A DNA stretch of 53,324 bases from an uncultured Bacilli bacterium (GTDB taxonomy: Bacteria > Bacillota_I > Bacilli_A > RF39 > UBA660). The notes beneath the pieces are model-generated. The model saw only the letters and a list, made by a program, of their open reading frames with translations, did no database searches and was not told the origin of the DNA. Positions 6,459 through 22,773 of the stretch are shown here, one piece after another. The DNA lies in contig CAKORQ010000001.1 of the NCBI GenBank assembly GCA_934101445.1, forward strand, positions 1 through 53,324. Reading direction: 5' to 3'. Every line of letters begins with the position of its first letter. Within the stretch, counting starts at the first letter, position 1. A program made the position numbers and the translations under genes.

Positions 6459-6472
6459 ATGAATTTTCCCTC

Positions 6473-8719
6473 CTATTCTTCCACGGCACACGGCTCAACA
6501 TATCTGATGTAGGTATAACCTGCACCATCATTTTTATTTGCCTCATTCAGTGTCTTATACTTCTTTCCGTTATGGGTAAATGTAGGCATATTCCCCACAT
6601 AGGAAGAACCCCCGGCACCGGAGTTTCCATACACACCATAGTTGCCTGCAAACCACCCTGCCCCGCCCGGTGAATAGGTATAGCTCGTATTGGAACTGGA
6701 AGGACCAAATGATGCGCCAAAATTTGTATAATCCGATGTCCCTACTGCTGTCTGTCTTCCGCCCAGGTTGCCTCCGGAGCCATCCTGTCCTCTTTCACCG
6801 CCTCCGGAGCCTCCTTCATTTATAGACAAAGCTTTGTACGGCTGTCCCATAGCTGTTCCATCCGTTGTTAATCCAGTTATACCTCCACCGCCTCCGCCAC
6901 CTGCAATCAAAAGAATTTTATTCCTCTGCTTATAGGTATTGGAAGCATTATTACCGCCAGACAAGGTAATATTTTCCGTTGCAATATAGGTTGCTCCGCC
7001 ACTTCCTGCTCCATAATTTCTCGAAGTTCCACTCCCAAAGTTATTTCCATAGGCTCCGCCATTCTGTCCGGATGAAGTTCCATTTGCTTTGCCACCGTTA
7101 TAGACATACAGATAGGTGTCTTTCTTACATTTTCTGTATGCCTTAACATGACCGCCTTTCCCGCCTTTGGCCGTTACGCTTTTGGAGGTACCATCAATCG
7201 TGATGTTTCCGGCAGCGTCACCACCTGCCCCGCCCCAGCATTCAAACTCATAGATACCGTCTGCCGGAACATGAAATGCCTGATAAGTGACATTTGCATT
7301 CAGAAAATCATACACCGTATCAATAAACACAGGTACAAGTTCCTCATCCTTCGTAAACTTATACTTTTCACCCGGAACATAGATTGTATCAGAGGAAAGG
7401 CTCGTCTTCCATCCACAGAAGGACTTATCCTCACCATATTCATATACATTATCCGGCATGGTCACATCATCAGATAAGGTCTTCCCGTTGTTATAATATA
7501 GGTCTGCCTTCTGGGTCGTTTCCTTCTTCCCGTCAATCAGGGCTGCATCTCCGGAATCCATTGAAATGGTGATCTGCTTTTTGAATACGGCATACAGTTT
7601 TACGGCTGACTCGCTGTTTATCACATAATCTGCAAGCACACCGCCGTCTGCATTTGCATCCGACTTCCATCCCACAAAAGTATATCCTGCCTTTGATACG
7701 GAAGGTGCTGATGCAACCGCGTCATTAGAAAGGGCAGCTGTCTGGGTAATGGCGTTATCCGTATCAATCTGATAAGTGACCTGGATTCCGGTTGCATAAA
7801 TCACATGCTGACCAAGATAGATAAATTTAATCTCCTGTGTATCTGCATTATCATAGCAGTAATACATGGTATTCTTATCATAAGTGCCTAACTTCTGGTA
7901 ATCGGTAACACTCATGATCTTCTGGACAAGATTACCCGTGGAGGAAAGCTGCTTTGTGACTTCATCAGCCACATTTTTTATCTTTTTATTGGTTTCCGTC
8001 ATATCCGTATCATGTTTCTTCTCAAGCTCTGTTAAATCTGTCTGCGCCTGTGTCAGTTCCAGAATGGTATTTCTTGCAGCAAACACAGCTGTTCCGTCCA
8101 GAACCGAATCTCCCACCTTTGTGATCTGACCGTATCCCTTTGGTTCAAGCACATCCGTTGTCCCGGCCTGTGTACAGTAAAGGGTACACCATCCCGGAGC
8201 AGAGGCTGATGAAGTTGTATCGCCTACGGCATACTTCTTTTCCCGTTCCAGTCCGGCTGCCCCGCCGCCCCCGCTGCCTCCCGGCGTGATAGTCTTAAAG
8301 GTATTCACAAGATCACTTATCTGGACTGCCGTGACCTTAAACTTTGCCAGTTCCAGGTCATAAGCCGTGTTGTTATAATTTACATTCACATCGGAGGCAA
8401 GATTCGACAGTTCCTTTGCCGTTTCCGTAAGAATCTGAATCGGCTCATCAGCATTGGATAAGTCCATGTGAAGATATATCCTGCCGAGTTTTGTTTCCCC
8501 CGTATCTGCCAGCTGGACAGCCACCTCTGTTTCATACAGTTCAAAGAACCGGCCTTTAATCATGCCGAACCCCTGACTGATATGAAGCACATTGCTTCTT
8601 GCAAAGGAAACCTCACAGCCTTTGAACACCCCTGCTCCCGGCAGAACCGTCTGATATATGATTGCATCATCCTGCGGTGTCACATTCCCGCCCTTGAAAG
8701 TCTTTAGTGCGATTGCCAT
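6473..8719 (-). CDS. Tail fibre / receptor-binding protein with two Listeria-Bacteroides-type repeats and a C-terminal glycine-rich domain
   Basis: 748 aa located after the Dit and Gp37-like genes. GYTFVGWKSD...LYAVF and SFCGWKTS repeats. The C-terminal ~270 aa are full of GGxGG / GGGGGGG / GAGGSSY runs. Confidence 0.8.
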   Translation of the reverse strand: MAIALKTFKGGNVTPQDDAIIYQTVLPGAGVFKGCEVSFARSNVLHISQGFGMIKGRFFELYETEVAVQLADTGETKLGRIYLHMDLSNADEPIQILTETAKELSNLASDVNVNYNNTAYDLELAKFKVTAVQISDLVNTFKTITPGGSGGGGAAGLEREKKYAVGDTTSSASAPGWCTLYCTQAGTTDVLEPKGYGQITKVGDSVLDGTAVFAARNTILELTQAQTDLTELEKKHDTDMTETNKKIKNVADEVTKQLSSTGNLVQKIMSVTDYQKLGTYDKNTMYYCYDNADTQEIKFIYLGQHVIYATGIQVTYQIDTDNAITQTAALSNDAVASAPSVSKAGYTFVGWKSDANADGGVLADYVINSESAVKLYAVFKKQITISMDSGDAALIDGKKETTQKADLYYNNGKTLSDDVTMPDNVYEYGEDKSFCGWKTSLSSDTIYVPGEKYKFTKDEELVPVFIDTVYDFLNANVTYQAFHVPADGIYEFECWGGAGGDAAGNITIDGTSKSVTAKGGKGGHVKAYRKCKKDTYLYVYNGGKANGTSSGQNGGAYGNNFGSGTSRNYGAGSGGATYIATENITLSGGNNASNTYKQRNKILLIAGGGGGGGITGLTTDGTAMGQPYKALSINEGGSGGGERGQDGSGGNLGGRQTAVGTSDYTNFGASFGPSSSNTSYTYSPGGAGWFAGNYGVYGNSGAGGSSYVGNMPTFTHNGKKYKTLNEANKNDGAGYTYIRYVEPCAVEE

Positions 8720-8724
8720 TTTCC

Positions 8725-9801
8725 TTACTCCCTCCGTAGTATTTTGGTAAGGTCTAACCTTACCGTTCCAAAAATCAGCTTGGTGTTTATCCCCCGTTCT
8801 TTTCCTGTAAGGATGGATGTATAAACTGCTTTATCAGACAGAATCCTTACTACCTGACCAAAGGACATCTCATCCGGTCTTACCAGGCTGTCCCCGTTTA
8901 ACATAGTCAGTTCAATCAGGTTACTGTAGGAAAGACTGGCGAAACGGTTATGTGCCTCGTTCATTGCTGCCGATTCAAAGGACGAATTCTCATCATGTTC
9001 GACTGCCTTCATCTCACACACCACGGGCGTTATCCTGTCCCGGTCAAAGGTGTCATACCCAAGGTCAGATGCATGAAGAAAATACACCCTTTTATCTGCA
9101 TAATCCGAAGCAGCATCATAAAGCACCAGCTTATTCACATCTGCAGATACCGACTTGATGGTCAGTGATTTCTTTATGATGTTCGGTAAATCGGCTTCTA
9201 TGGTAACCACTCCCGTTCCTGCCCTCCCTACGCAGACCCGGATGGCTCTGTTCTGGATATCCAGTCCTGCATCAACTACAATGCTGTATTTGGAAAGAGC
9301 CGGAATAATAATGGAATCCATCAGATTTACGATATTAAAATGTCCGCCTGCCTGTGCAGGTGTGATATGAAAATACCAGTCCGTGGTAGAAGATGCCGTT
9401 TCCACGGACAGCCCCGGGATGTTCTGCTCTGCGTCCTCATTCTCTATAAACATTTCCGTAATCTTTCTGCAGATATAATCTTCCAGTGAACCCTTTCCCT
9501 GTTCACTGACATCAAATAAAATGTCCGTATCAAACAGTTCCATCAGCGGTTTATAGGATATCTGCATCAGATTCTTGGATTTGTCCGTTCCATAAGTGAT
9601 TTCAGTAATCACTCCGGCATACTCTTCCTTCCCTCTGGAGATACGGATATAGTCCTGCTTTGATATACCTTTCACCGGGAGAATGGTAATGCTGTTTTCA
9701 TCTCCTGAAAGATAGTCTTCCTTATAGGTGACAGAGTCAATATTGGTATTTCCGACCATACGGAATGCCGGAGTAAAGATTTCCACATTATACGGTTTCA
9801 T
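8725..9801 (-). CDS. Siphovirus Gp37-like baseplate/tail-tip protein
   Basis: Position between Dit and fibre; N-terminus MKPYNVEIFTPAFRMVG... is typical of ReqiPepy6 Gp37-like proteins (recognised by eye). Confidence 0.65.
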   Translation of the reverse strand: MKPYNVEIFTPAFRMVGNTNIDSVTYKEDYLSGDENSITILPVKGISKQDYIRISRGKEEYAGVITEITYGTDKSKNLMQISYKPLMELFDTDILFDVSEQGKGSLEDYICRKITEMFIENEDAEQNIPGLSVETASSTTDWYFHITPAQAGGHFNIVNLMDSIIIPALSKYSIVVDAGLDIQNRAIRVCVGRAGTGVVTIEADLPNIIKKSLTIKSVSADVNKLVLYDAASDYADKRVYFLHASDLGYDTFDRDRITPVVCEMKAVEHDENSSFESAAMNEAHNRFASLSYSNLIELTMLNGDSLVRPDEMSFGQVVRILSDKAVYTSILTGKERGINTKLIFGTVRLDLTKILRRE

Positions 9802-10621
9802 AACTGATCTTCCCTTCTACCAGTACATCAAGCATATTTAAGCCGTCATGGGTTACCGAGATACGGTTCGTTCCATGCTGCAGATGAAAGAACCTCTCCG
9901 TTGTGAAATCACAGACCTGATACCTGTCCGCTACAACCTCATCCGAGACTCCCCTCTCCGTTATGCTGTAAGGAACACTTGTTGAGTCAATTACCAGCTT
10001 ATGATCACCGGAAATGATTCCCTCATATCTCCCGGTCTCATACAGTTCATTATTCACATAATGTTTCCATACCGGATTTTCCGCAGGACCAAAGATGGTA
10101 ATTCTGCATGGAGAATCTTCATAAGAATCCGAATCGATCAGGATGGTATTCTTGGATTCATCCGTATAGGAATAAGTATATTCATACGGATACACCTTCC
10201 CTCCAACTGCGATGGTTTCTGCATATTTCTGTACCGTTCTGTAAAACAGTCCGGCTGCCAGAAATACAACATCACAGTTCAGACACTGACCGCCGTTTTC
10301 CAGTTCTGCCTTTCCAATCTCCACAAGCCTCACGGGAACCCGGAACGTTTCTTCCATTTCATACATAAGAGTCAGGGGTACGGCTCTCACGAATCTTGTA
10401 AATTTTCTATATGTCTCATAAGGACTCTTTCCTGCAAACAGGATTTTTCCTTTCATCTGCCCCTGGGAAAAAATTTCCTCAAGTGCAAAAAAATCCGTTC
10501 CTATCTGTTCATACTGGGTATTATCCTTATAGCCGAATCCTTCCACGGAATGGAAGAAAGCAGTCCGGCTGTTTAAGTCAAAACTGCTTCCTTCGGCATT
10601 AATCAGTTTAAATTTTCTCAT
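9788..10621 (-). CDS. Distal tail protein (Dit)
   Basis: 277 aa, immediately downstream of and overlapping the tape-measure gene; canonical position. Confidence 0.7.
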   Translation of the reverse strand: MRKFKLINAEGSSFDLNSRTAFFHSVEGFGYKDNTQYEQIGTDFFALEEIFSQGQMKGKILFAGKSPYETYRKFTRFVRAVPLTLMYEMEETFRVPVRLVEIGKAELENGGQCLNCDVVFLAAGLFYRTVQKYAETIAVGGKVYPYEYTYSYTDESKNTILIDSDSYEDSPCRITIFGPAENPVWKHYVNNELYETGRYEGIISGDHKLVIDSTSVPYSITERGVSDEVVADRYQVCDFTTERFFHLQHGTNRISVTHDGLNMLDVLVEGKISYETV

Positions 10622-13600
10622 AGATACGCCTTTCCAAGCTGACGGTTCAATCCGCCTGCCAGTTCTCCCACAAGGGTTCCGGAATCAAGAACAACCTTCT
10701 GATTTGCCATCTGCGGCAGATATTTGGAAAGCATGGCCGTCAGTCCGCTGATATCCGTCTCCTGTCCGCTGCCATTATGATTCTGTATGGCAGCCGTACC
10801 TTTTGTTCCAGGAATCATGGCAGATGCCAGTTCACTCATGGGGCCTTTCAGTTTTCCAAGGTTACCTTCAATACCTTTCCCCATAAGTTCAATCATGTCC
10901 GGCATATAAGTGTGAAAATTGGAAAGCGGTCCCTTTTCCGGTTCAGAAAATCCGATGTAGTCCCGGATGGTGGATGCAATGTTTCTTACCTTATCCACAA
11001 GAGAACCGATCATGGAACTGATACCGGATATCAGGTTACTGATGATATCCTTTCCCCAGGTAAAGGCACTTTTTGCAATTTCAGCAAAAGCACTCCCGAT
11101 ACTTCCGACCTTTTCTTTTATGGTGGATACCATGTTCCCCATTCCGGCAGCCACAGAGGATACCAGATTAGACAATCCGCTTGTAACATTCCCCTTGATT
11201 TCCGACAGTTTAGAACCAATCGTGGATGCAATATTCTGCAGTCCCGATGCTGTCCTATCCTTCATGGTATTCAGGTTGTTCGTGAAGGTCTCTGCCACGT
11301 TATGGATAGCAGAGGAAAAGTTCTCCTTCATATCCCCGGCAATGGACACTACCTTATCTTTGATGCTGCCCCACAGGCTTTCCGTATTGGATTTGATGGC
11401 ATTCCAGCCTTCCACTACTTTATCCTTCATGTGGGACATTGCCTGTGAAGTATTTTCTTTCAGGCTGCTCCACGTATTCTGAACAAAATCCCTGATATTA
11501 GATGCAATGCCTGTAACCGTATCCTTTATGCCGTTCCATATAGAAGAAGAAAATTCCTTAAGTCCCGTCCATGCATCGGAGATGGTATCCTTCACGGAAG
11601 ATGCTGCACTCTGCGTGGAGGACTTGATACTTTCCCATGCAGAACCGATTTCTTCTTTCAGACCGTTCCATGTAGAAACGGTATTTGATCTGATATTCTC
11701 CCATGCAGAAGCCACCCCGCTTTTGATACCTTCCCAGGCTGATGAAGATGCCGATCTGATTCCCTCCCAGGCGGTTGATACAGCTGTTTTCACACTGTCC
11801 CATGCTGTACCAGTGACGGTTTTGACACTCTCCCAGGCTGAAGAAAGACCACTCTTGATATACTCCCATCCGCTGGATGCCACGGTTTTGATTCCTTCCC
11901 AGGCACCGGAGAAAAAGGACTTAATCCCTTCCCACGCAGACACGAAAATGTCTTCTACAGCATTTAAAAAGGAATCCCACGCATTACGGAATCCCTCACA
12001 ATTGTCATATATTAATTTGAATGCCCCAGCTACCGGATTGACAAGGAACAGCAGAAGTCCCTGCCAGTTGTTCTTAATGAAATCAAGCACCCCGGAGAAT
12101 ACCGACTTGATTCCGTCCCATATTCTCACAAAGAAGTCCTTGATTCCTGTCCAGAGATTGATCCAGAACTCCCGGAAACCGTCACATTTATTCCAAAGGA
12201 CAGCAAATGTGGCTACCAGTGCCACAATGGCTGCAATCACAAGTCCGATAGGATTGGCAAGCATCACCGCATTTAATGCACCAAACACTCCGGTCACTGC
12301 ACTGATGGCACTTCCCATTGCAGGGAGAATCGTCAGGATCGTTCCCACTGCAGATACGATCTTGCCGATTACCAGAAGTACGGGACCGATAGCCGCTGCT
12401 ATGGCTGCAATCCGCACGATGGTTTCTTTTGTCTTTGGATCCATAGCATTCAGCTTATCGATGATCTTCTGAATAAAAGACACCACATCCCGGATAACCG
12501 GAATCAGTATCTCGCCAAAGGAAATGGCAAGTTCCTCCAGCTGCGATTTTAAGATAGTCAGCTGTCCGGAAAGGTTATCCTGCATCACATCCGCCATATG
12601 CTGACTCGTGCCGTCACAATTTTCAATGGCACCTGACAGCTTATCAATATCAGCCGGAGCTGCATTCATAACGGCAAGGAAACCGGACATGGCATTCTTA
12701 CCGACAAGTGCTTCTGCATTAGCAGCCTTTTCCGAATCGCTCATCCTGCCGAATGCCACCCGGCAGTCTGCCAGAATATCATTGAGGCTTCTCATGCTGC
12801 CATCTGCATTGGTAGTACGGATTTCCATCTCTCCAAAGGCAGCCCCTGTGAATTTCACTTCCCCTGCAAGATTATTCATCATGGTACGCATGGCGGTACC
12901 AGCTTGGGAAGATTTAATTCCGGCATTGGCCATAAGACCGATTGCCTCTGCCGTATCTTCTGCTGAAAATCCCAGCGCACCTGCTATGGGCGCACAATAC
13001 TTAAAAGTCTCACCCATCATGGATACATTGGTATTTGCATTGGAAGAAGCTGCCGCCAGAATATCAGCAAAATGCCCTGAATCAGCAGCGGTAAGTCCGA
13101 ATGCTGTCAGGGCATCTGTTACAATATCCGATGTGGTTGCCAAATCTTCTCCGGAGGCGGCAGCAAGGTTCATGATTCCTTCAATACCGGAAAGCATATC
13201 CGAAGTTTTCCATCCGGCCATAGCCATGTAGTTCATGGCTTCTGCTGCCTCGGTTGCGGAGAACTTGGTCCTGGCTCCCATCTCCCTTGCTTTTTCCCTT
13301 AAGGAATCAAACTCATCACCTGATGCCCCTGACACTGCCTGAACCTGTGCCATAGCGGAATCAAAGTCTGCTGCCGTCTTTACCGCTGCTGTTCCCAACC
13401 CGATGACCGGAGCCGTGACCGTTTTGGTAAGGGCAGAGCCAACGGATGATATGTTATCACCCAGTTTTTTCATGTTCTCACCCGTATTAGCAAGTTTCTG
13501 CAATGCTACGGCTGACTGGTCCGCCTGTTTCTCCAGCTTTTCCAGCTGCTGTTCTGTTGCGATGATTTCCCTCTGCAGGGCATCATACTGCTGCTGTGAG

Positions 13601-13872
13601 ATTTCCCCGTTTGCAAGTTTCTCATTAGCCTGCTGGGCTGCCTCCTTTAACTGCTGTAATTTCTCCTTTGTTTCCGAAACAGCCTGTGCCAACAGCTTAT
13701 GTTTTTGTGTAATCAGTTCCGTATTGCCGGGATCAAGTTTTAATAAGTTATTTACATCCCGAAGCTGTGACTGGGTACTCTTGATTTCCGAATTGACCGA
13801 TTTTAAGGCTGTGGAAAGTTTTGTAGTATCTCCACCGATTTCCACGGTAATTCCGGCTATTCTGTTTGCCAT
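10618..13872 (-). CDS. Tail tape measure protein
   Basis: 1084 aa. N-terminal coiled coil; TMP core (MAQVQAVSGASGDEF...AMNYMAMAGW); central hydrophobic segments; long 11-residue Trp-periodic repeat region. Confidence 0.95.
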   Translation of the reverse strand: MANRIAGITVEIGGDTTKLSTALKSVNSEIKSTQSQLRDVNNLLKLDPGNTELITQKHKLLAQAVSETKEKLQQLKEAAQQANEKLANGEISQQQYDALQREIIATEQQLEKLEKQADQSAVALQKLANTGENMKKLGDNISSVGSALTKTVTAPVIGLGTAAVKTAADFDSAMAQVQAVSGASGDEFDSLREKAREMGARTKFSATEAAEAMNYMAMAGWKTSDMLSGIEGIMNLAAASGEDLATTSDIVTDALTAFGLTAADSGHFADILAAASSNANTNVSMMGETFKYCAPIAGALGFSAEDTAEAIGLMANAGIKSSQAGTAMRTMMNNLAGEVKFTGAAFGEMEIRTTNADGSMRSLNDILADCRVAFGRMSDSEKAANAEALVGKNAMSGFLAVMNAAPADIDKLSGAIENCDGTSQHMADVMQDNLSGQLTILKSQLEELAISFGEILIPVIRDVVSFIQKIIDKLNAMDPKTKETIVRIAAIAAAIGPVLLVIGKIVSAVGTILTILPAMGSAISAVTGVFGALNAVMLANPIGLVIAAIVALVATFAVLWNKCDGFREFWINLWTGIKDFFVRIWDGIKSVFSGVLDFIKNNWQGLLLFLVNPVAGAFKLIYDNCEGFRNAWDSFLNAVEDIFVSAWEGIKSFFSGAWEGIKTVASSGWEYIKSGLSSAWESVKTVTGTAWDSVKTAVSTAWEGIRSASSSAWEGIKSGVASAWENIRSNTVSTWNGLKEEIGSAWESIKSSTQSAASSVKDTISDAWTGLKEFSSSIWNGIKDTVTGIASNIRDFVQNTWSSLKENTSQAMSHMKDKVVEGWNAIKSNTESLWGSIKDKVVSIAGDMKENFSSAIHNVAETFTNNLNTMKDRTASGLQNIASTIGSKLSEIKGNVTSGLSNLVSSVAAGMGNMVSTIKEKVGSIGSAFAEIAKSAFTWGKDIISNLISGISSMIGSLVDKVRNIASTIRDYIGFSEPEKGPLSNFHTYMPDMIELMGKGIEGNLGKLKGPMSELASAMIPGTKGTAAIQNHNGSGQETDISGLTAMLSKYLPQMANQKVVLDSGTLVGELAGGLNRQLGKAYL
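11617..11940 (-). repeat. Ten consecutive 33-nt (11-aa) tandem repeats inside the tape-measure gene (consensus xAWExIKSxxS)
   Basis: Trp at TMP residues 647, 658, 669 ... 746 (exact 11-aa spacing). A looser continuation reaches ~residue 834. Confidence 0.85.
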
Positions 13873-13896
13873 CTACTTTCCACCCCCATTTTAGGT

Positions 13897-13921
13897 ACAA
13901 AAAAAGGAGCCACTTGGCTCC
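13897..13921 (-). terminator. Second of two tandem terminators downstream of the MazF-like gene
   Basis: Minus strand GGAGCC-AAGU-GGCUCC followed by U7. It lies just upstream of the TMP RBS. Confidence 0.6.
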
Positions 13922-13922
13922 A

Positions 13923-13952
13923 TAAAAAAGGCACCAGCTAAAAGCTGATGCC
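13923..13952 (-). terminator. First terminator downstream of the MazF-like gene
   Basis: Minus strand GGCAUCAGC-UUUUA-GCUGGUGCC (9 bp, one G-U pair) followed by U6. It starts about 10 nt after the stop codon. Confidence 0.6.
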
Positions 13953-13962
13953 CTGTTTTTCA

Positions 13963-14307
13963 TTATGCTACTAAATTAAATTGAATTCTCAATGCCTGAG
14001 CTATTTTATTAAGTATTCCGGCATCCCAAATTGAACCAATCTGTTTTTGTAACCTTGATTGATCCAATGGCATTGTCTGTTCCAAAAGTATGACACTTTC
14101 CTTCTGCAATCCACACCCTTTAATATGTACATGGGTTGGAATACAATGTTTCCCCAGTTTAGAAGTTAACGGAGCAATCGATACCATCGTAGAATATTGA
14201 TTGAATTTATTATTTGATACAATCAATACGGGACGACACCCCTGTTGCACACTGCTCCCCTCCAATACAGGTAAGTCAGCATAATAGAGATCACCAAATT
14301 TGTACAT
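13963..14307 (-). CDS. MazF/PemK-family type II toxin (endoribonuclease fold), solitary
   Basis: GDLYYADL...GSSVQQGCRPVLIVSNNKFNQYSTMVSIAPLTSK...IPTHV...SVILLEQTMPLDQSRL matches the PemK/MazF motif pattern. GGAGG RBS; 114 aa. Confidence 0.85.
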   Translation of the reverse strand: MYKFGDLYYADLPVLEGSSVQQGCRPVLIVSNNKFNQYSTMVSIAPLTSKLGKHCIPTHVHIKGCGLQKESVILLEQTMPLDQSRLQKQIGSIWDAGILNKIAQALRIQFNLVA

Positions 14308-14468
14308 GTTTTGTCCTCCAAATCTAAAGTTTATAGTATTTGGAGCAAGGCAGATGCGAACTAATTCTTCCCATCTGCCTTTCTCCGTAACCGGAACATG
14401 TATTTTTCAAAGCGTTTTCCTATCTCTATCTTCATTAATTATCCTCTTTCATTTTATTGGATAAGCTT

Positions 14469-14497
14469 GTTATAACATAACTCATGTTTTTAATCAA
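14469..14497 (-). promoter_or_regulatory. Candidate sigma-70-type promoter for the MazF-like moron
   Basis: Minus strand TTGATT - 17 nt - TATAAC, inside the 221-nt AT-rich gap between gpT and the toxin gene. It would give a ~155-nt leader containing an 8-bp hairpin (14349..14379). Confidence 0.3.
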
Positions 14498-14528
14498 TAC
14501 CACGTTCCAAAGTTGATAAATGCATTCA

Positions 14529-14693
14529 CTAGAACTTATTAAAATCCTCCTGTGTTGCCAAAGGAAGATACTCATAATCATCATTCTGGCTTTCGATAAA
14601 AATATCATTAACCATTCCTACCGTCAGCAAATCAAGGTCCCGTAAAGACAACCCGATTTGCAGACACCTCAGCAGGAATAATGGTGTTGTCAT
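14529..14693 (-). CDS. gpT-like C-terminal extension of the tail assembly chaperone (made as a G-T fusion by -1 frameshift; it also has its own ATG in an ATGA overlap)
   Basis: 54-codon ORF in the -1 frame relative to 14690..15067. That frame is open from the A8 slippery run through to the stop at 14529. Confidence 0.6.
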   Translation of the reverse strand: MTTPLFLLRCLQIGLSLRDLDLLTVGMVNDIFIESQNDDYEYLPLATQEDFNKF

Positions 14694-15067
14694 TTCACGC
14701 TCTGTTGGACGAAGTTTTTTTTAGCTTCGGCATCCGTTTTAATGTTCATCCCCCATAACTCGATAAGCTGTGGCAGAACCTGATAGATGGAAAATGTGTT
14801 GAATTCGTCCAACCATTCCTCCACTTCATCCGGAATGGAAGGGTCTGCGTGTTTGGCCATAATAAAAGCAATGTTCTCAAACATCTCAAGGGAAAACAGG
14901 TCAAGGTTACTTTCCTCTTCCGAATTATCTCCCAGGTTCTTTTCCAACAGAGAAATATCCTTATAGATATCTCTTTGAAATTTCAGTCTGTAAATACGGG
15001 GAATGGCGGCACTCGCTTTGAATGCCACCTCTTTCCCATCAATTTCAATCGTTCTTCTTACACCCAT
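14690..15067 (-). CDS. Tail assembly chaperone (gpG-like)
   Basis: 125 aa, acidic, located between the major tail protein and the TMP; has a slippery run near its 3' end. Confidence 0.75.
   Translation of the reverse strand: MGVRRTIEIDGKEVAFKASAAIPRIYRLKFQRDIYKDISLLEKNLGDNSEEESNLDLFSLEMFENIAFIMAKHADPSIPDEVEEWLDEFNTFSIYQVLPQLIELWGMNIKTDAEAKKNFVQQSVK
14715..14722 (-). other. -1 programmed ribosomal frameshift slippery site (A8 run, GCU AAA AAA AAC) of the tail chaperone G/GT pair
   Basis: The T8 run on the plus strand is A8 on the coding strand, 8 codons before the G stop. A -1 slip reads ...KKKLRPTEREMTTPLFLL... into the gpT frame. Confidence 0.6.
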
Positions 15068-15079
15068 ATACTCTGCCTC

Positions 15080-15688
15080 CTACTTCTTACCTTCTGTAGT
15101 ATCCGTTTCTTCTTCCTCATAACCGCCTACGGCATCCGGCTGATATACTGCCTTGTACCAGCCGTTATAAGCAGCTGCTTTTGTGGTATCTCCGGATTTT
15201 GCCTTAACCAGCCCATTGGCAAGCGGACGGGCTTTGATGGTCAGTTTCTCCGTCTGTACTTCCTTTGTTGCCTCATTAGTCTTGGAAGAAATGCTGGGTC
15301 TGGATGCAGAGCAGTTATACAGTACATGACGGATTTTTTTCAGATCGCCGTCAAACTCAAACAGCAGTGCAAAGTGTCCTACCTGTGAATTACTGTTTTC
15401 CACAAGAACATTATTGGAATCTGTCGTTTCATTTAAAATTCCGGTACTGAAAGCCTCCGGAATAAGTGCAATCTCCAAATCTCCGGAGTAGCCCTGATTG
15501 GAATTGATAACAAAATACTCCACTCCATCTGCATAGAAGGATTCCGGTTCTCCTTCCGGATCAAGGGAAATGGATACCGCACCGGGAATGGGAATCGGCG
15601 TATCCCATGTGATTGTCCCATTCTCTGCTTCTCTTAATGGTGCGAAATGGACATTGCTCAGATTGAATTTCACTTTATTCTTAGCCAT
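15080..15688 (-). CDS. Major tail protein (phi13-type)
   Basis: MAKNKVKFNLSNVHFAPL...TWDTPIPIPGAVSISLDPEGE..FYADGV pattern; canonical position. Confidence 0.8.
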   Translation of the reverse strand: MAKNKVKFNLSNVHFAPLREAENGTITWDTPIPIPGAVSISLDPEGEPESFYADGVEYFVINSNQGYSGDLEIALIPEAFSTGILNETTDSNNVLVENSNSQVGHFALLFEFDGDLKKIRHVLYNCSASRPSISSKTNEATKEVQTEKLTIKARPLANGLVKAKSGDTTKAAAYNGWYKAVYQPDAVGGYEEEETDTTEGKK

Positions 15689-15690
15689 TT

Positions 15691-16008
15691 TTATACCTCC
15701 ATTTGATACAGGACTTCATACAGCTTTTCGCTTGAAATCCATACTTCTGACTTATCATAAAAAAGACCATGCCCTATAAGCACAGCCTCTACCTTTTCCT
15801 CCAAATCGATATCCTTATAATCTGTATAAAGTTCGATATGAAGTTTATTCACTTTAAAATAGGTAACCCCATCGGCTGCAAAATTATCTGCTCCTGGATA
15901 GAGATACACAAGGAAAGGCGAATCAGGGGACTCCCCTTCCGCAAAATGATGATATGCAAATGGAAGTTTCATTTCTTCCAGCATTTTGGTTACGTTCTCT
16001 GCCGTCAT
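15691..16008 (-). CDS. Tail terminator/completion protein (assigned by position)
   Basis: 105 aa, between the gp10-like gene and the major tail protein gene, overlapping its neighbour. Confidence 0.5.
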   Translation of the reverse strand: MTAENVTKMLEEMKLPFAYHHFAEGESPDSPFLVYLYPGADNFAADGVTYFKVNKLHIELYTDYKDIDLEEKVEAVLIGHGLFYDKSEVWISSEKLYEVLYQMEV

Positions 16009-16373
16009 AAACCTTCCTCCACTGCTTTCTTAAGCTCCGAAACAGCCAGTGTTTCTCCTTTTGCGATATGAGGTTTTGCCTTTGTCCTTCCCCCGCCACG
16101 CTTGGCATGTCCATATTCCAAAAGGTGTGTCAGCTGGTACTTTTTTGCATGAACAACATAGGTTGCACCAAGAGAAGAATTGGCAGTCTGTGTAATCTCC
16201 CATGACTTTTTATATGCTCCCGTATCTACCGGAGCGTTCTCCTGTATCTTCTTTTTCACATCATCTGCCACATCTTTCACGATGGTCTTTACTTTGGAAG
16301 CTGACAATTCTACATAGTCCTCAAATTCCTTCGCTATGGCGTTTCCCATCTCATCAACGGATACTGTTTTCAT
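16005..16373 (-). CDS. HK97 gp10-family head-tail joining protein
   Basis: KKYQLTHLLEYGHAKRGGG motif and position. Confidence 0.75.
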   Translation of the reverse strand: MKTVSVDEMGNAIAKEFEDYVELSASKVKTIVKDVADDVKKKIQENAPVDTGAYKKSWEITQTANSSLGATYVVHAKKYQLTHLLEYGHAKRGGGRTKAKPHIAKGETLAVSELKKAVEEGL

Positions 16374-16375
16374 GA

Positions 16376-16711
16376 CTACCTCCTTACAAGCTCGGCATGG
16401 AACTTCAAACTCCTGTGCTTAAAAGCCATATCATCTACAGAAATAATATTGTAAATTCTATCTCCCAGCAGAATCCGGAAACCATCAGGAGTTATTGCTG
16501 CTGTTTCTGAAGAATACCGGACTGTAAAATCCATCCGTTCTGCGTGGACAGTCTGTGCTGTCTCTTCCCCTTCCTTTTCCCCGGTCTTGGTACTGGTAGT
16601 CGCATAGCAGGAATAATAATCTGCCCATACATTTTTATGGTTGCCAATTTTATCTGTTACCACTGCATTTTTTTGAATGGAGATTCTTACATTCATAGCA
16701 GAAATGTGCAT
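16376..16711 (-). CDS. Head closure / head-tail adaptor (SPP1 gp16-type)
   Basis: MHISAMNVRISIQK...DKIGN...W..Y..CYA pattern. The start at 16711 forms a TGATG overlap with the upstream stop. Confidence 0.75.
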   Translation of the reverse strand: MHISAMNVRISIQKNAVVTDKIGNHKNVWADYYSCYATTSTKTGEKEGEETAQTVHAERMDFTVRYSSETAAITPDGFRILLGDRIYNIISVDDMAFKHRSLKFHAELVRR

Positions 16712-16986
16712 CAGAATGCCTCCTTCCTGTCCCCACAAAGCAAATAACGAAGTGAACTTATCAGGGCATGATGGTCAGCTTCTTCCCGATGTTCATAGAG
16801 ATAAGCTGTTGCATAGAGAACGGCAATCTCTATCTCTGGTATGCATGCAAAGGACTCCTCCGGTGTTACCCGAAGGATATCCCTACAGATTTTTTCCGCA
16901 GACTGGACAATACCAAGAATCAGAGCATCTTCATCAGTGGTATCCACACGGAGATACTGTTTTACCGTTTCTAATGCAACAACCAT
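16711..16986 (-). CDS. gp6-like head-tail connector protein
   Basis: LETVKQYLRVDTTDEDALILGIVQSAE motif. Confidence 0.8.
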   Translation of the reverse strand: MVVALETVKQYLRVDTTDEDALILGIVQSAEKICRDILRVTPEESFACIPEIEIAVLYATAYLYEHREEADHHALISSLRYLLCGDRKEAF

Positions 16987-16998
16987 CCTCTATCCTCC

Positions 16999-18192
16999 TT
17001 ACCCTTTGGAAGAAGCGGTGGTTTTCAGATTCAGAATCTGAACAGCCTCCGGAAGGAGGAGCAATCCATCCACACGTTCCTTTGCCACAAAGCCTACCAT
17101 TCCATTTCCAGCAAACAGTTCATTCAGTGTCTTGAATGATCTGGCTCCACGGTCAGCAATGTTGTAATAAGAATAGTCACCAAAGGAAATCGCATTCTCC
17201 GGTGCATACGCAGAAGTACGAACCTTATACCCCGCAATCTGATCCGGTTCTCCTGCAACCAGAGAAGGCTGCCACAAATACTGACCGTTGTTGTCCTTCA
17301 GCTTACGAATCTGCGCAATAGTTTTATCATTCATAATGAAGGATGCACCCTTACGGTATGGTCTCTTCAACTTATAAATGAGGTCAAAGATATCATCTGC
17401 CTTAATATCTGCTGCCAAATTTCCTACTTTTGTCCCACCAGTCGTAGCATCAAAAACACCATAAGGTTTCCCCTTGCCATCCCCATTTAAGAAAGCATCT
17501 TCTTCGGCATTTGCAAGTGCCCTGCCAAACTGGGTAAGAATATATTTCTCCAAATCAAAAGCAGAATCATACAGGAGTTCTTCTGTTACCTTTATTGCTA
17601 CATGGAGTTTGTGGGAATCTACAAACTTCTGGTCGAAGGTAGCATCACCAAAAGTAAGGGCTCCGCCTTCCTCTACCCATAATGCGGCAGGTGTGGTAGC
17701 TGCGATATTGATTTTATGTTCTCCGGAAGTGGTAATCTTGGTAGCAAGGGCACGCATGATATTTTCTTCTTCCAGCACCTGGATCAGACGGTTATCATAC
17801 TCCACAGGTACAAGATATCCGCCATCGGCATCCACACCTTCCTGCAGGACATCCGATACTTTACGAAAATTGGTACGGAGTGCATCGACCATCGCATTCT
17901 TATAGGCTGCTCTTTCCCTGAACGGCTTTGCACTTTCCGTTTCCATCTGTGCATTCGGCTGCATGGTAATCGGTGTACTTGTTGCCTGTGCCAGTTTGTC
18001 ATCAATTGCCTGCTGACGGGCAAGACGCTCAATCTCTGCTGTCAGATTCTGAACATCTGCCTCCATTTTTTCATAAGTGGCTGCATCCTCTGCGGATACA
18101 AAACCATCTGCATTACGCTTTGCATCAAGAAAAGCTTTTGCTGTTTCCCATGCTTTTGCTCTCTTCTCTGTAAGTTCTAAAATCTTACTCAT
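16999..18192 (-). CDS. Major capsid protein, HK97 family
   Basis: 397 aa. N-terminal delta-like coiled region, then GGYLVP...; located downstream of the ClpP protease. Confidence 0.93.
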   Translation of the reverse strand: MSKILELTEKRAKAWETAKAFLDAKRNADGFVSAEDAATYEKMEADVQNLTAEIERLARQQAIDDKLAQATSTPITMQPNAQMETESAKPFRERAAYKNAMVDALRTNFRKVSDVLQEGVDADGGYLVPVEYDNRLIQVLEEENIMRALATKITTSGEHKINIAATTPAALWVEEGGALTFGDATFDQKFVDSHKLHVAIKVTEELLYDSAFDLEKYILTQFGRALANAEEDAFLNGDGKGKPYGVFDATTGGTKVGNLAADIKADDIFDLIYKLKRPYRKGASFIMNDKTIAQIRKLKDNNGQYLWQPSLVAGEPDQIAGYKVRTSAYAPENAISFGDYSYYNIADRGARSFKTLNELFAGNGMVGFVAKERVDGLLLLPEAVQILNLKTTASSKG

Positions 18193-18207
18193 GAAATAAT
18201 CCTCCTC

Positions 18208-18978
18208 TTAGTGGGATAAAAGACTGAGTCTCTTATCCAAATCTGTGATACGGACTCCCGCTTTTTCCGGTACCGTTTCGTTTACTTTTGCAATAAAGCT
18301 ATCTTCCACAGCCTTCCGGCTGAAAAGAACATCTGTCGAAGGATACACGTTCCCCAGCTTTTCAGGTATTGCATCCTTGGGGTTTTCGCCTTCTGTAGCG
18401 TCTGCTGTCTTATCAGATACAGAACTATCCTCAAACAGGATTTCATCCACAAAACCTAACTCCTTCGCTTTCTTGGCATTCATCCATGTTTCGTTTGCCA
18501 TAAGTTCAGAAATCTTTTTATGGGACAGCTTTGACTTGGCAGCATAAGCATTGATAATGGATTCCTTCACCTCATCCAACACATGAATGGCCTGTTCCAT
18601 ATCCCGTGTATTTCCGATAGCCATCATCATGGGGTCATGAATCATAAGCATTCCCACCGGACTGATGGTTACCTGATCCCCTGCCATTGCAATCACGGAT
18701 GCGGCCGAAGCAGCAAGTCCATCAATTTTTACTGTTACATTGCCCTTGTAATCACGGAGCATGTTATAAATCTGTGCTGCTGCAAATACATCTCCTCCCG
18801 GTGAGTTAATCCATACGGCAATATCCCCACTTCCACTTTCCAGTTCTTCCCTGAACATCTGTGGTGTGGTCTCATCTCCCCACCAGGTTTCATCAGAAAT
18901 TTCTCCCGACAAAAAAAGCGTCCTGGGTTCTCCCGGTACGCTCTCATCTCTGATCCAGTTCCAAAACTTTCGTTTCAT
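18208..18978 (-). CDS. ClpP-type (S14) prohead maturation protease
   Basis: INSPGGDVFAAAQIYNMLRDYKGNVTVKIDGLAASAASVIAMAGD. Confidence 0.9.
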   Translation of the reverse strand: MKRKFWNWIRDESVPGEPRTLFLSGEISDETWWGDETTPQMFREELESGSGDIAVWINSPGGDVFAAAQIYNMLRDYKGNVTVKIDGLAASAASVIAMAGDQVTISPVGMLMIHDPMMMAIGNTRDMEQAIHVLDEVKESIINAYAAKSKLSHKKISELMANETWMNAKKAKELGFVDEILFEDSSVSDKTADATEGENPKDAIPEKLGNVYPSTDVLFSRKAVEDSFIAKVNETVPEKAGVRITDLDKRLSLLSH

Positions 18979-20270
18979 GACTTTCCTCGCTTTCTACTAT
19001 TTGGTTTTTCCTGCTGATTTTCTGCATCTGTATTTTTATCCGCAAATATGCCTGCATCTCTCAGTCTGCATAAAGCGCCATTCACCAGATACAGATTTCC
19101 ACCTTCCTCATCCGGGATGGGGTTCAAATCTTCCAGTTCCCGGACATCATTGGGTGACATGAATCCGTTCTGCAGTCCTATGGAATAACCTTCCATTCTG
19201 GATTTGTAATCTCCACGAAGAAGTCCATCCACATTCAGCTTCACAAAATACGTTCCTTTTTCTCCCGGTAAAAACAATGCCTTCTGCAGGGACTGTTCCC
19301 ATCGGATTACCCACGGATCAAGCGTATATTTTACAAATTCCAACGACTGCTGCTCAATGTTATTAAAGCTGCTCTTATCCAAATCTCCTATCATATGTGG
19401 GGGAATCCGATAAAGCCTTGCTATTTCATTTAGCTGAAACTTCCTTGTTTCCAGAAACTGTGCTTCTTCCGGTGGAATACCAATCTGCTGGTATTTCATA
19501 CCTTCTTCCAATACAGCAATCTTGTGGGCATTGTTGCTGCCACGGTACACCTCGTTCCATGACTCCCGTACCCTTGCAGGGTCTTTTAAGACTCCGGGAT
19601 GTTCCAGAACGCCACCAGGATTTGCTCCATTTGCAAAAAAGGAGGCTCCATATTCCTCACAGGCAAGCGTCATCCCCACAGCATTTTTTGCCATTGCAAT
19701 CGGAGAGAAACCTTTCAGTCCATTAAACCCCAGTGCCGGAATATGCAATACTTCCTCTGGCTTTAAGATGTAGTCCTTGGTTTCTTTTAAATAAGGATTC
19801 TCGTCACTCTGTCTGGAATAGGTGTAATACAGATTGCCACGTTCATCCCGGTCTACTTCCATACGATTAGGGAGCAGAGGATACAGGGCAATCACCCTTC
19901 CTGCTCCATCCCTTATAATCTGTGCATAGGCATTCCCCCAAATCAAAAGATGGCTCATCATGGTTTCACGAAACACAAAGGATGTCATCTCCGGATTGGG
20001 TTCATCATGCAGAATTCTATATAGGGGATGATCTGTTACCATCGTCTTGCCACCATTTTCATCATATTTATACACATGAAGCGGCAGTGAGGCTATTGCC
20101 TCAGACAGTATTCTCACACAGGCATACACGGCTGTGGTCTGCATGGCTGACCGTTCATTGACCGCTTTCCCGGAAGAAGTTCTGCCAAACAAAAAAGACG
20201 GTCCCCCGCCTACTGTATTCACAGGCTTATCCCTCGCCTGTGAAAATCCAAAGAATTCTCTGATCCCCAT
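18975..20270 (-). CDS. Portal protein, HK97 family
   Basis: 431 aa, between TerL and the protease; typical HPLYRILHDEPNPEMTS block. Confidence 0.93.
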   Translation of the reverse strand: MGIREFFGFSQARDKPVNTVGGGPSFLFGRTSSGKAVNERSAMQTTAVYACVRILSEAIASLPLHVYKYDENGGKTMVTDHPLYRILHDEPNPEMTSFVFRETMMSHLLIWGNAYAQIIRDGAGRVIALYPLLPNRMEVDRDERGNLYYTYSRQSDENPYLKETKDYILKPEEVLHIPALGFNGLKGFSPIAMAKNAVGMTLACEEYGASFFANGANPGGVLEHPGVLKDPARVRESWNEVYRGSNNAHKIAVLEEGMKYQQIGIPPEEAQFLETRKFQLNEIARLYRIPPHMIGDLDKSSFNNIEQQSLEFVKYTLDPWVIRWEQSLQKALFLPGEKGTYFVKLNVDGLLRGDYKSRMEGYSIGLQNGFMSPNDVRELEDLNPIPDEEGGNLYLVNGALCRLRDAGIFADKNTDAENQQEKPNSRKRGKS

Positions 20271-20366
20271 AAATTTCTCCTATTATCTTTCCATACTGTT
20301 AAGGGCTTCCCGGATTAACAGGAAGCCCAATATCGAAACAAATATCATTTTCTTCTCCCAGATATC

Positions 20367-21968
20367 TTAAAAGACAAACAAACCTCTGGAGTCGTACACG
20401 CTTTCTGTGGAAACATTTTCGCACCGGATAGCACGGTCAAGTGCCATGATGGTTGCCACTGCTCCATCAATCTTCTCCGTGGATTTTTCCTTATCCGGTT
20501 TCACATTTCCCGCCGGGTCTGTCCGAACGAAAATATTATCCATATTCCAACGCAGTACTGGATGCCCTCCATGTGCAATCCGCTGTTCCAACGTCAGTTT
20601 CATCAATTCCTTCGTTGGTGGTGACATGGATGCAAAGCCCTGTCCAAAGGGAACTACCGTAAATCCCATACCTTCCAGATTCTGTACCATCTGGACTGCT
20701 CCCCACCTATCAAATGCTATTTCTTTTATCTGAAAACGCTCTCCCAGCTTTTCGATAAACTTTTCAATAAATCCATAATGCACCACGTTTCCTTCCGTAG
20801 TCATGATTTTCCCCTGTTTTTCCCACAAGTCATATGGGACATGATCCCTGCGAACCCTGAGCGAAAGGGTCTCTTCCGGTATCCAATAATATGGCAGTAC
20901 CTCATATTTCCCCTCTGCCTCTTCCGGTGGAAATACCAGTACAAAAGCGGTAAGGTCTGTAGTACTTGATAAATCCAGACCTCCATAGCAGATTCGTCCT
21001 TCCAATTCCCTCTCATCCACAGGAAAAGCACAGGCATCCCATTTAATCATAGGCATCCATCTAGTGGACTGTTTTACCCACTGATTCAGTCGGAGCTGCC
21101 GGAAAGAGTTTTCCTCGCTTGGGGTCTGCTTTGCAGATTCGCAGGCAGCTTTTACCTTATCCAGTCCAATCGTGATCCCAAGACTGGGATTCGCCTTTTC
21201 CCACACTTTAGGGTCTGTCCAGTCATCTTCTTCCGATGCTCCATAAATTACCGGATAAAAAGTAGCGTCTATCTTTCTGCCTTCGATGATATCCACTGCC
21301 TTCTGATGCAATTCATAACAAATGGAATTCGTATCATTTCCCGCTGTAGTTATAATAAAATGTAGTGGGTTTTTTCTTGCATCTGATGTTCCCTTAGTCA
21401 TCATGTCAAAAAACTTTCTGTCCTTTTGCACCCATAATTCATCAAAAATAAGAGCACTGACATTGATTCCCGATTTTCCGGCTACCTCAGCTGACAAGGC
21501 TTTATACGTGCTGTTGGTCGGAATATAATGAATGGTCTTTCTGCTTGGGCGGATATCGCACCTACTACTTAATGCCGGACAGAGACGCACCATATCACAG
21601 GCTACATCAAATACCAACGAACTCTGGTCACGATCTGCAGCACAGCCGTATACCTCTGCTCTCTGCTCCCCATCTGCACATAACATATATAATGCGATTG
21701 CCGCTGCAAGTTCCGACTTTCCACATTTTTTTGGAACTTCAATATAAACGGTAGTAAACTGTCTATACCCATCAGGCTTTAATATTCCAAATACATCCCG
21801 AATAATCTTTTCCTGCCAGTCGATTAATTCAAACGGCTTCTTATAAAATTCTCCTTTGGTATGCTTTAACTGCTCTATGAAAGAGACCACATAGTCTGCT
21901 TCCTCTTTATCATAATGGGAGGTTTTTGCCATGAACTTTGTCGGTGTATATTTTTTCAGTCTCCGCAA
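20367..21968 (-). CDS. terL: Terminase large subunit (Terminase_1 type)
   Basis: 533 aa. Walker A-like VPKKCGKSEL; C-terminal nuclease region. A TTG start at 21968 is preceded by GGAGAG; the alternative ATG at 21932 lacks an RBS. Confidence 0.93.
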   Translation of the reverse strand: MRRLKKYTPTKFMAKTSHYDKEEADYVVSFIEQLKHTKGEFYKKPFELIDWQEKIIRDVFGILKPDGYRQFTTVYIEVPKKCGKSELAAAIALYMLCADGEQRAEVYGCAADRDQSSLVFDVACDMVRLCPALSSRCDIRPSRKTIHYIPTNSTYKALSAEVAGKSGINVSALIFDELWVQKDRKFFDMMTKGTSDARKNPLHFIITTAGNDTNSICYELHQKAVDIIEGRKIDATFYPVIYGASEEDDWTDPKVWEKANPSLGITIGLDKVKAACESAKQTPSEENSFRQLRLNQWVKQSTRWMPMIKWDACAFPVDERELEGRICYGGLDLSSTTDLTAFVLVFPPEEAEGKYEVLPYYWIPEETLSLRVRRDHVPYDLWEKQGKIMTTEGNVVHYGFIEKFIEKLGERFQIKEIAFDRWGAVQMVQNLEGMGFTVVPFGQGFASMSPPTKELMKLTLEQRIAHGGHPVLRWNMDNIFVRTDPAGNVKPDKEKSTEKIDGAVATIMALDRAIRCENVSTESVYDSRGLFVF

Positions 21969-22027
21969 ATGACTCTCTCCTTTAACTCCACGAAAAAAGG
22001 ACTCTTAAGAGTCCTCCTTCTGTATAT

Positions 22028-22231
22028 TTACCTTTGCGTGTACCGATGAATGGCATTCAGAATCTGTTGCTGTTCCTCGGCATCCACTCCGATGCTGCAA
22101 AGAGCCTCTCTTGTCCCACAGTCGGGACAAATCTGCGTCTTTCCATCCACTCTTGAAAGTGCCGGAGCATCATGGTATCTCTGCCCACAAATGGGGCAGA
22201 GTCTAATATGTCCATTTTTTCTACTTTTCAT
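22028..22231 (-). CDS. Small zinc-ribbon protein
   Basis: CPICG...CPDCG motifs. The ATG at 22231 overlaps the GGCT stop by 11 nt. Confidence 0.5.
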   Translation of the reverse strand: MKSRKNGHIRLCPICGQRYHDAPALSRVDGKTQICPDCGTREALCSIGVDAEEQQQILNAIHRYTQR

Positions 22232-22691: not shown

Positions 22692-22773
22692 TCTGCATCC
22701 ATCCTTTCCGAAGGAAATACCCTTCTACCACCTTAAGACCGCCAAGGCGGTCAATTGATAAAGTGGCAGGAGG

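Follow-up and report, generated by a model that had tools for sequence, protein, structure and literature searches.

A solitary toxin gene, mazF, lies in the tail operon of a prophage carried by an uncultured Bacilli bacterium (GTDB lineage Bacillota_I; Bacilli_A; RF39; UBA660), on a 53,324-nucleotide (nt) stretch of contig CAKORQ010000001.1 that was analysed as a whole and is called the window below. The gene (13963..14307; 114 amino acids (aa)) encodes a MazF/EndoA-family endoribonuclease; its open reading frame (ORF) has G/GT, the tail chaperone, on one side and the tape-measure gene on the other, and the whole unit is on the minus strand. Upstream of it are the tail assembly chaperone gene G (14690..15067; 125 aa; phrog_709, E = 4e-41), which holds the same position in related phages, and the T extension of GT (14529..14693; −1 frame, 54 codons as called; phrog_3033, E = 2.8e-21). 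The G/GT frameshift was read from the sequence at a −1 slippery heptamer, A_AAA_AAC (14720..14714), the −1 frame being open from the heptamer to the stop at 14529, and the final ~80 nt of the T extension form the left edge of a diverged cassette. A gap of 221 nt (14308..14528) then separates the T stop from mazF, and downstream of mazF there are two predicted intrinsic terminators, T1 (13928..13954; a 12-bp stem followed by a U-tract) and T2 (13906..13921; GGAGCC..GGCUCC followed by U7). The ribosome-binding site (RBS) of the tape-measure protein gene (10618..13872; 1,084 aa; phrog_1272, E = 3.7e-228) is reached ~30 nt past T2. GC content inside the cassette is 0.35–0.38, compared with ~0.45 in the flanks. 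A preliminary description of this DNA, made from the letters and the ORF list, had reported a PemK/MazF ORF in the tail operon, an AT-rich non-coding gap before it, a promoter candidate and a leader hairpin within that gap, and two tandem hairpin and U-run terminators just before the tape-measure RBS; each of these is present as described.

By profile, modelled fold and conserved catalytic residues, the gene product is a full-length, intact member of the MazF family. The protein matches Pfam family PF02452 (PemK_toxin; E = 9.5e-22, profile positions 2–109 of 109) and phrog_1936 ('MazF-like growth inhibitor'; E = 2.8e-24), and it aligns end to end with Bacillus subtilis EndoA/MazF (4ME7, 4MDX), Staphylococcus aureus MazF and Bacillus anthracis MoxT (E ~2e-18). 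An AlphaFold2 (AF2) model (predicted local distance difference test score (pLDDT) 86.2, predicted template modelling score (pTM) 0.81) was compared by Foldseek with 1NE8, 4MDX and 4MZP, giving template modelling (TM) scores of 0.86–0.89 to the B. subtilis and S. aureus MazFs and assigning the protein to the SH3-like barrel of the MazF/Kid fold. Arg25 and Thr48, the catalytic pair of B. subtilis MazF (4MDX; B. subtilis numbering), align with their counterparts in B. subtilis EndoA and are kept in 76 of 76 and 75 of 76 relatives, respectively; Asn32, His59, Ser71 and Glu76 are likewise kept in 75–76 of the 76. Across four phage lineages, the ratio of non-synonymous to synonymous substitution rates (dN/dS) for mazF is ~0.10, with synonymous sites near saturation (proportion of synonymous differences, pS, ~0.65). 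Attenuation or decay, one of three possibilities that the preliminary description had raised for a toxin lacking an antitoxin, is unlikely on this comparative evidence, because dN/dS is so low and the active site is intact. Relative to canonical MazF proteins, the β1–β2 loop of the clade to which the protein belongs is longer by one residue and a later loop is shorter by two; we presume that these correspond to the antitoxin-contacting loops of MazF.

No antitoxin gene was recognised. Searches of all six frames of the window with phmmer and hmmsearch, using as queries EndoAI-type MazE sequences from related chromosomal loci together with Escherichia coli MazE, Kis and S. aureus MazE, revealed no MazE-, EndoAI- or Kis-like sequence, with nothing below E = 3, and Pfam and PHROG scans of ~20 small ORFs of the window found no antitoxin among them. 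The partner that the preliminary description had suggested looking for elsewhere in the prophage was thus not found. As it had also stated, the only same-strand ORFs upstream of mazF are of 16 codons (overlapping the promoter candidate) and 24 codons, and nothing but the terminators and the tape-measure gene follows. The protein occurs in identical form (P0001) on 41 contigs, and the other lineages are represented by three diverged clusters (P0002, 75% identity; P0003, 79%; P0004, 75%); all four are always found in the GT/tape-measure interval, which contains no further gene, so that in none of them is there the adjacent, co-transcribed antitoxin gene of a type II mazEF-like operon. The description of the toxin as solitary therefore holds for the four lineages.

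Beyond these phages, the proteins next in similarity in a first homologue search (46–48% identity) are chromosomal MazFs from alr-mazE-mazF loci, in which a 95–96-aa antitoxin gene overlaps the toxin start. A single-protein search for related loci returned nothing in IMG/VR and only one metagenome-assembled genome in GTDB. A metagenome scan for the sub-family of the window protein, by the motifs RPVLIVSN[ND] and PLTSK, recovered 80 loci, where the gene typically stands alone after serine recombinases or tyrosine integrases, some copies being behind their own TTGACA-type promoter and a leader of 70–250 nt. A neighbour-joining (NJ) tree (no support values) places the window clade with solitary genes and apart from the canonical clade. 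The window toxin belongs to a MazF clade carried on mobile elements, usually with no antitoxin gene adjacent. Several of the other loci may be described in passing. Outside the phage tail slot, the closest relative found (54% identity; L032:2388-5029) is located between an hsdS-like gene and hsdM of a type I restriction–modification (R-M) locus; its neighbours make it a lone RNase gene within a defence operon. In loci following a serine recombinase (L039, L042 and L047) or a tyrosine integrase (L094–L111), mazF begins 31–47 nt downstream and is followed by variable cargo, an arrangement suggesting that MazF-like genes move together with the integration modules of clostridial mobile elements. 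Two chromosomal MazFs of the canonical clade (44–46% identity to the window protein; L024:3001-3357 and L026:3001-3360) are apparently solitary as well, one after a 231-nt non-coding gap and the other 59 nt past recU, with no mazE called upstream of either.

Comparison with related phages indicates that the cassette occupies a site used for exchangeable genes. On sequence relationships, the phage is a temperate siphophage related to the Candidatus (Ca.) Heliusvirales gut phages of Lachnospiraceae/Clostridia, with which it shares 65–70% DNA identity across the tail module. In one relative (NatCom_42228), the slot is empty, with just a 14-nt junction separating GT from the tape-measure gene; a scan for a close relative with an empty slot found none. 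Other Heliusvirales carry different cargo in the slot: a glyoxalase/bleomycin-resistance protein, a GNAT acetyltransferase, an HTH_3 protein with a 156-aa partner, a 294-aa protein of unknown function or an HNH nuclease on the opposite strand that matches PADLOC restriction-enzyme models. Immediately behind the T stop, the same promoter, TTGAGA-17-TGnTATACT, precedes three unrelated cargos, and four (glyoxalase, GNAT, HTH with its 156-aa partner, and the 294-aa protein) share a tandem terminator pair, the second member of which, GGAGCAGAGATGCTCC-TTTTTTTGTACC, is nearly the same as T2 of the window; these shared elements are seen at L113:1761-1789 and 2384-2440, with equivalents in L114, L115 and L117. 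The mazF cassette thus has the features of a moron, as had been proposed: DNA that is extra at the junction relative to other phages, a base composition deviating from that of the flanks, a promoter-like element of its own, and two predicted terminators that are conserved across cargos. The promoter candidate and terminators are present as the preliminary description had said, and what needs amending is their attribution to mazF, since they are common to unrelated cargos of the slot; the near-identical terminator pair in particular is a property of the slot and not of mazF. In these comparisons, the GT/tape-measure junction is a conserved 'landing pad' for morons, a recurring layout that consists of a promoter, an exchangeable gene and two terminators.

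The terminators are better represented in the region than expected (5 terminator-like sites, compared with 2.0 in shuffled sequences). All four lineages retain the T1 stem, with alternation between U-G and U-A pairs, and a near-identical T2-like element is found downstream of the glyoxalase, GNAT, HTH and unknown cargos. The presence of both predicted terminators also lends support to the earlier point that late transcription must get past them to reach the tape-measure gene. The promoter candidate (14469..14497) comprises a −35 hexamer, TTGATT (14497..14492), a 17-nt spacer and a −10 hexamer, TATAAC (14474..14469), preceded by TG at 14477-14476, as in an extended −10 element. A generic promoter scanner did not list it, because a T is missing at the end of its −10, and the region showed no excess of promoter-like sites (6, compared with 5.0 in shuffles), so that the candidate's support is comparative: in a diverged lineage with a similarly long leader (locus L014), the −35 is identical, the −10 matches at five of six positions (with TGnTATAA conserved) and the spacer varies in sequence yet is again 17 nt. 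On this basis we regard the cassette as probably having an extended −10, σA-type promoter.

Between promoter and toxin, the 155-nt leader is, by the same comparison, under purifying selection. From the −35 to the mazF AUG, window and L014 are 81% identical, compared with 47% in the spacer after the T stop and 35–41% at the synonymous sites of mazF and G, and such conservation where synonymous sites are saturated indicates that the leader is functional. Its first element is the 24-codon upstream ORF MKIEIGKRFEKYMFRLRRKADGKN (14361..14435), with a Shine–Dalgarno (SD) sequence, GAAAGAGGA (14442..14450), that is identical in both long-leader lineages; the L014 counterpart, MKTEKSQRFEKYMFRSRRKAGGKY, has the same start, length and stop position. 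The encoded peptide has a conserved core, RFEKYMFR.R.KA.GK, a net charge of ~+6 and no family match in Pfam, PHROG and PADLOC scans. Its codons 8–14 are 95% identical in nucleotide sequence between window and L014, wobble positions included, and the changes in codons 1–7 are all non-synonymous, which suggests that the translation and RNA structure of this ORF matter more than its peptide sequence. The tiny-peptide antitoxin that the preliminary description had entertained thus gains a conserved ORF and is left with a strongly basic product that has no detectable similarity to MazE.

The leader is also predicted to be strongly structured, with folding z-scores relative to shuffled controls of −6.0 (window) and −4.5 (L014) and a predicted structure common to all four distinct leader sequences. 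Hairpin 1 (14348..14380; arms AGGCAGAUG.../...CAUCUGCCU; ~−19.6 kcal/mol) holds the stop codon of the small ORF in its loop, contains the 8-bp hairpin noted earlier (GGCAGATG/CATCTGCC, 14349..14379), and retains as G-U a pair in which L014 has an A-to-G change. Hairpin 2 (14316..14345; ~−11.4 kcal/mol) pairs an anti-SD sequence, CUCCAAAU (14345..14338), with AUUUGGAG (14323..14316), which holds the mazF SD; its stems are identical in both long-leader lineages, and its loop differs in both sequence and length (14 versus 19 nt). In both minimum-free-energy and consensus folds, helix P1 joins UACAUGU (14396..14402, codons 12–14 of the small ORF) to ACAUGUA (14303..14309), which covers the mazF AUG. 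The computed probability of being unpaired is ~0 for the mazF SD (GGAG) and AUG, in the moron transcript as well as in a polycistronic context, and it stays ~0 wherever on the upstream ORF a ribosome footprint is put. The leader is accordingly predicted by these models to bury the mazF RBS and start codon and so to hold translation down. Of the non-canonical control that the preliminary description had offered as another possibility, the leader does prove to be conserved, and its simplest role would be occlusion in cis, not that of an RNA antitoxin acting in trans.

Some further features of the leader were considered. No credible Rfam family matched it. An extended form of hairpin 1 (19-nt arms) was rejected as an alternative anti-SD partner, because its GGAG arm reads GGCG in L014, and the idea of a lock found only where there is a promoter was not relied upon, since SD pairing in silico is also partial in the short-leader alleles described below. 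Three leader pattern scans of IMG/VR gave, respectively, a single chance hit (L031), none, and one informative short-leader hit (L120). The pentamer UACAU, the cleavage site of Bacillus and Staphylococcus MazF, occurs at 14398..14402, within helix P1, where the leader is most conserved, and again inside the mazF ORF at 14126..14130 (codons His59–Ile62), where it is kept in L012 and not in L014; feedback by MazF self-cleavage through these sites in leader and ORF is conceivable.

On alignments of close relatives, the cassette is exchanged as a unit, because near-identical phages carry a diverged mazF allele that has neither promoter nor upstream ORF. IMG/VR contig L120 has a backbone 95–99% identical to the window on both sides, with only 61–81% identity across ~14600..13916; it carries the P0003 allele, with 76 nt from T to mazF and no promoter, upstream ORF or T2. 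In such short-leader alleles, mazF follows 75–76 nt after T. A conserved 11-bp hairpin, GGAAGGUUGGA/UCCAA[U/C]CUUCC, is found there between the T stop and the mazF RBS (L012:366-398, L029 and L120:1736-1768); it has no U-tract after it, a T/C change converts a G-U to a G-C pair, and it could be a processing or stability element.

We tentatively favour, at a rough probability of 0.45, the reading that the cassette is a moron expressed in the lysogen, with its toxin kept below toxic levels by translational occlusion in cis and not by an antitoxin, and with the RNase restricting superinfecting phages and/or damping lytic transcripts. The lysogen would transcribe the cassette independently from the extended −10 promoter; the leader RNA would hide both the SD of mazF, within hairpin 2, and its AUG, within helix P1; very little MazF would be made, such dosage control in cis taking the place of a protein antitoxin; and the enzyme, presumably toxic when abundant, would cut the RNA of superinfecting phages (through exclusion or abortive infection) and/or damp lytic transcripts, stabilising lysogeny. 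The damping of lytic transcripts is suggested because MazF activity controls both lysogeny and defence in the B. subtilis phage phi3T, where lysogenisation depends on it and where it inhibits induction and protects against antitoxin-less phage (bioRxiv 10.1101/2023.04.27.537455). A more general form of this idea seems to us rather unlikely: a MazF clade of clostridial phages and other mobile elements would have given up antitoxins entirely, the toxin being gated in cis by its leader (upstream ORF, anti-SD hairpin and AUG helix), a type-I-style lock on a type-II-family toxin. MazF would then be released on a trigger, for example altered translation of the upstream ORF or cleavage of the leader during superinfection; in a sub-variant, the basic 24-aa peptide would itself be the inhibitor.

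Several observations weigh against a lysogen-expressed, occluded RNase. Two of the four lineages, P0003 and P0004, have no promoter, upstream ORF or T2, yet their mazF is under the same purifying selection, and because these promoterless lineages keep the gene, its conserved function may act from the late transcript; expression in the lysogen, to which the preliminary description had pointed, is therefore not universal. The −10 hexamer of the promoter candidate is itself without the usually invariant last T. The covariation check on the leader returned no compensatory double substitutions and four one-sided changes, and with four distinct sequences and no double changes, the structure is predicted and conserved and not proven by covariation. 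The antitoxin searches had the 53-kb window as their scope, and the host genome, where a trans-acting MazE could be encoded, lay outside it. No PADLOC defence-system model matches the window MazF. The phage sense strand shows neither enrichment nor depletion of UACAU (17 copies in the late region, with 20–24 expected), so that target logic is unsupported; by the same count, self-protection through motif avoidance was rejected.

The chief alternative, which we consider possible though on balance unlikely, is that MazF is a late-lytic host-takeover RNase, made mainly from the late tail transcript or by read-through, which would degrade host and/or early mRNAs in the manner of T4 RegB in a host that is already doomed, with no need of an antitoxin and with the promoter-like element incidental or secondary. 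The short-leader alleles, promoterless, free of an upstream ORF and under equal purifying selection, speak for such a role; PHROGs places the family under 'host takeover', and most Ca. Heliusvirales records hold a MazF-like gene in the lytic early/middle operon, after a phrog_36/DUF1492 regulator and with no antitoxin. Set against this are the conservation of the promoter hexamers and 17-nt spacing where neutral sites are saturated, the occupation of the same promoter–terminator slot by non-lytic cargos (glyoxalase and GNAT), late phage transcripts that show no UACAU depletion, and the NJ tree, in which the window clade does not descend from the early-slot one; moreover, an occluding leader would also repress translation from the late polycistronic transcript. 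A different explanation, that MazF is neutralised in trans by a chromosomal MazE/EndoAI-type antitoxin of the host or by an unrecognised prophage protein, strikes us as improbable. Its attractions are the proximity of the alr-mazE-mazF toxins to the window protein in the first homologue search and the documented cross-talk between phages and hosts through MazF/MazE-like proteins, but the window is devoid of MazE/EndoAI/Kis-like sequence and of antitoxin-like small ORFs, the altered loops of the clade (one residue more, two fewer) presumably lie where canonical antitoxins make contact, and the clade's genes stand alone across many unrelated mobile elements and hosts.

We think it very improbable that MazF has been attenuated or repurposed into a non-toxic protein (of narrow specificity or with a non-nuclease role) that needs no antitoxin: solitary clade copies behind constitutive-looking promoters are common and the loop differences could alter specificity, but Arg25, Thr48, His59, Ser71 and Glu76 are invariant or nearly so among the 76 relatives, selection on the gene is strong, the modelled fold is indistinguishable from that of active MazFs, and an elaborate translational lock would be needless for a harmless protein. 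It is slightly less credible still, and in our estimate highly improbable, that the 24-aa peptide acts as a minimal antitoxin of the AimX type by binding MazF. The ORF, its SD, its length and its core are all conserved, the peptide has a conserved K-Y-M, and AimX of phi3T neutralises MazF through a critical Tyr (bioRxiv 10.1101/2023.04.27.537455). Profile hidden Markov model and phmmer comparisons nonetheless gave no similarity to MazE C-termini, of whose G-Y-x-[EQ]-M motif K-Y-M alone is reminiscent; the peptide's positive charge contrasts with the Asp/Glu-rich MazE C-termini (L018 and L021), the window MazF being itself net basic; the contrasting codon patterns of the two halves of the ORF point to a constraint on RNA; and the ORF is absent from the short-leader alleles. 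An RNA antitoxin, either a type I antisense RNA or a type III repeat RNA in or opposite the leader, is the explanation to which we attach least credence, barely worth entertaining. ToxN-type toxins have a fold related to that of MazF, and the leader is long, conserved and structured; yet there are no tandem, ToxI-like repeats of the type III kind in 13850..14700, a 54-aa antisense ORF (14300..14464, plus strand) is interrupted by stops in L014, promoter-like sites on the antisense strand occur no more often than by chance and are not conserved, leaving no conserved antisense gene, and Rfam offers no match.

The occluded, lysogen-expressed MazF that we favour has partial parallels in several known systems. 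Like the toxins of MazEF/EndoAI–EndoA modules (ndoAI-ndoA; Bacillus, Staphylococcus and Clostridioides), the window protein keeps Arg25 and Thr48 and is 37–41% identical to solved MazFs; unlike them, it has no detectable MazE, differs in its loops, resides in a phage tail operon instead of an alr-mazEF-sigB locus, and has an initiation region predicted to be occluded by a 5′ leader in place of regulation by a toxin–antitoxin (TA) complex. With type I toxin mRNAs (hok/mok, tisB and zorO) it shares, on predicted structure, a leader that hides the SD and start codon and an upstream frame that overlaps the regulatory helices, but its product is a soluble type II-family RNase and no antisense RNA is evident. 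PrrC, a solitary RNase toxin in the EcoprrI type I R-M locus, is latent without a classical antitoxin, and the relative at L032 is similarly a solitary RNase in a defence locus; the protein families are unrelated, and no interaction with an R-M system can be inferred for the window gene. The phage genes of phrog_1936, including those of Ca. Heliusvirales, belong to the same family and are likewise phage-borne and apparently free of an antitoxin, but the Heliusvirales copies are of another clade and are placed in the early/middle operon after the phrog_36/DUF1492 regulator. In such records (L118:3495-3863 in PV036444.1, L119:3501-3857 in PV036442.1 and ~25 other PV0364xx entries), the MazF-like gene, 38–45% identical to the window protein and with no antitoxin annotated, begins 4–10 nt after that sigma-like regulator. 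RNases of the MazF type apparently recur as an accessory in this group; the paper describing Heliusvirales does not mention MazF (PMC11283538). At the early slot of the window itself (29424..29879), the regulator is retained and is followed by an HNH endonuclease and TerS, and no second mazF copy or pseudogene was found.

As a moron, the cassette is comparable to HK97 gene 15, the archetype, which occupies the same slot and whose product, made by the prophage, excludes other phages (PMC3594210). It resembles gene 15 and other lambdoid morons in having its own promoter-like element and terminator inside a late operon and a deviating GC content. It departs from these in that its cargo is a cytoplasmic RNase toxin and not a membrane exclusion protein, in its long, structured leader with an upstream ORF and in its Firmicutes hosts, where Q-type antitermination is not established. 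The small phage peptides AimX and YosL of phi3T and SPβ inhibit host MazF, AimX acting via its critical Tyr (bioRxiv 10.1101/2023.04.27.537455), and they offer a precedent for phage–MazF interplay over lysis, lysogeny and defence; in that case the antitoxin comes from the phage and the toxin from the host, whereas the phage in the window encodes the toxin, and its 24-aa peptide has no detectable homology to MazE or AimX.

Phage MazF-like genes have already been catalogued (phrog_1936), and the slot is a textbook position for morons. In the literature that we searched, we found no description of an antitoxin-less MazF clade on clostridial mobile elements, of a conserved leader and upstream ORF that occlude the mazF start, or of a standardised cargo site with a promoter and double terminator. 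If control by the leader in cis is correct, a classical type II toxin would be kept safe with no antitoxin, blurring TA typology and yielding a compact, portable module of a toxin plus an RNA lock. The standardised cargo-expression site belongs to a phage group that is very widespread in the human gut and helps to predict lysogenic-conversion genes.

Other observations concern the remainder of the window. On the sense strand of 188..34300, eight pentamers (CGCGA, GCGCG, CCGCG, CTAGC, GCTAG, CGACG, GCTCG and CTCGT) are wholly absent, with 13–32 copies of each expected from base composition, which may reflect avoidance of restriction sites or of CpG. Several large unannotated ORFs lie at 43022..48429. 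A block on the opposite strand (35377..39550, plus) encodes a phrog_408 protein, a DUF2800/PD-(D/E)XK nuclease, a 198-aa protein and a family A DNA polymerase. At the left prophage end (188..3258) there are two tandem, overlapping genes for large serine recombinases of 524 and 503 aa (Resolvase, Recombinase and Zn_ribbon_recom domains).

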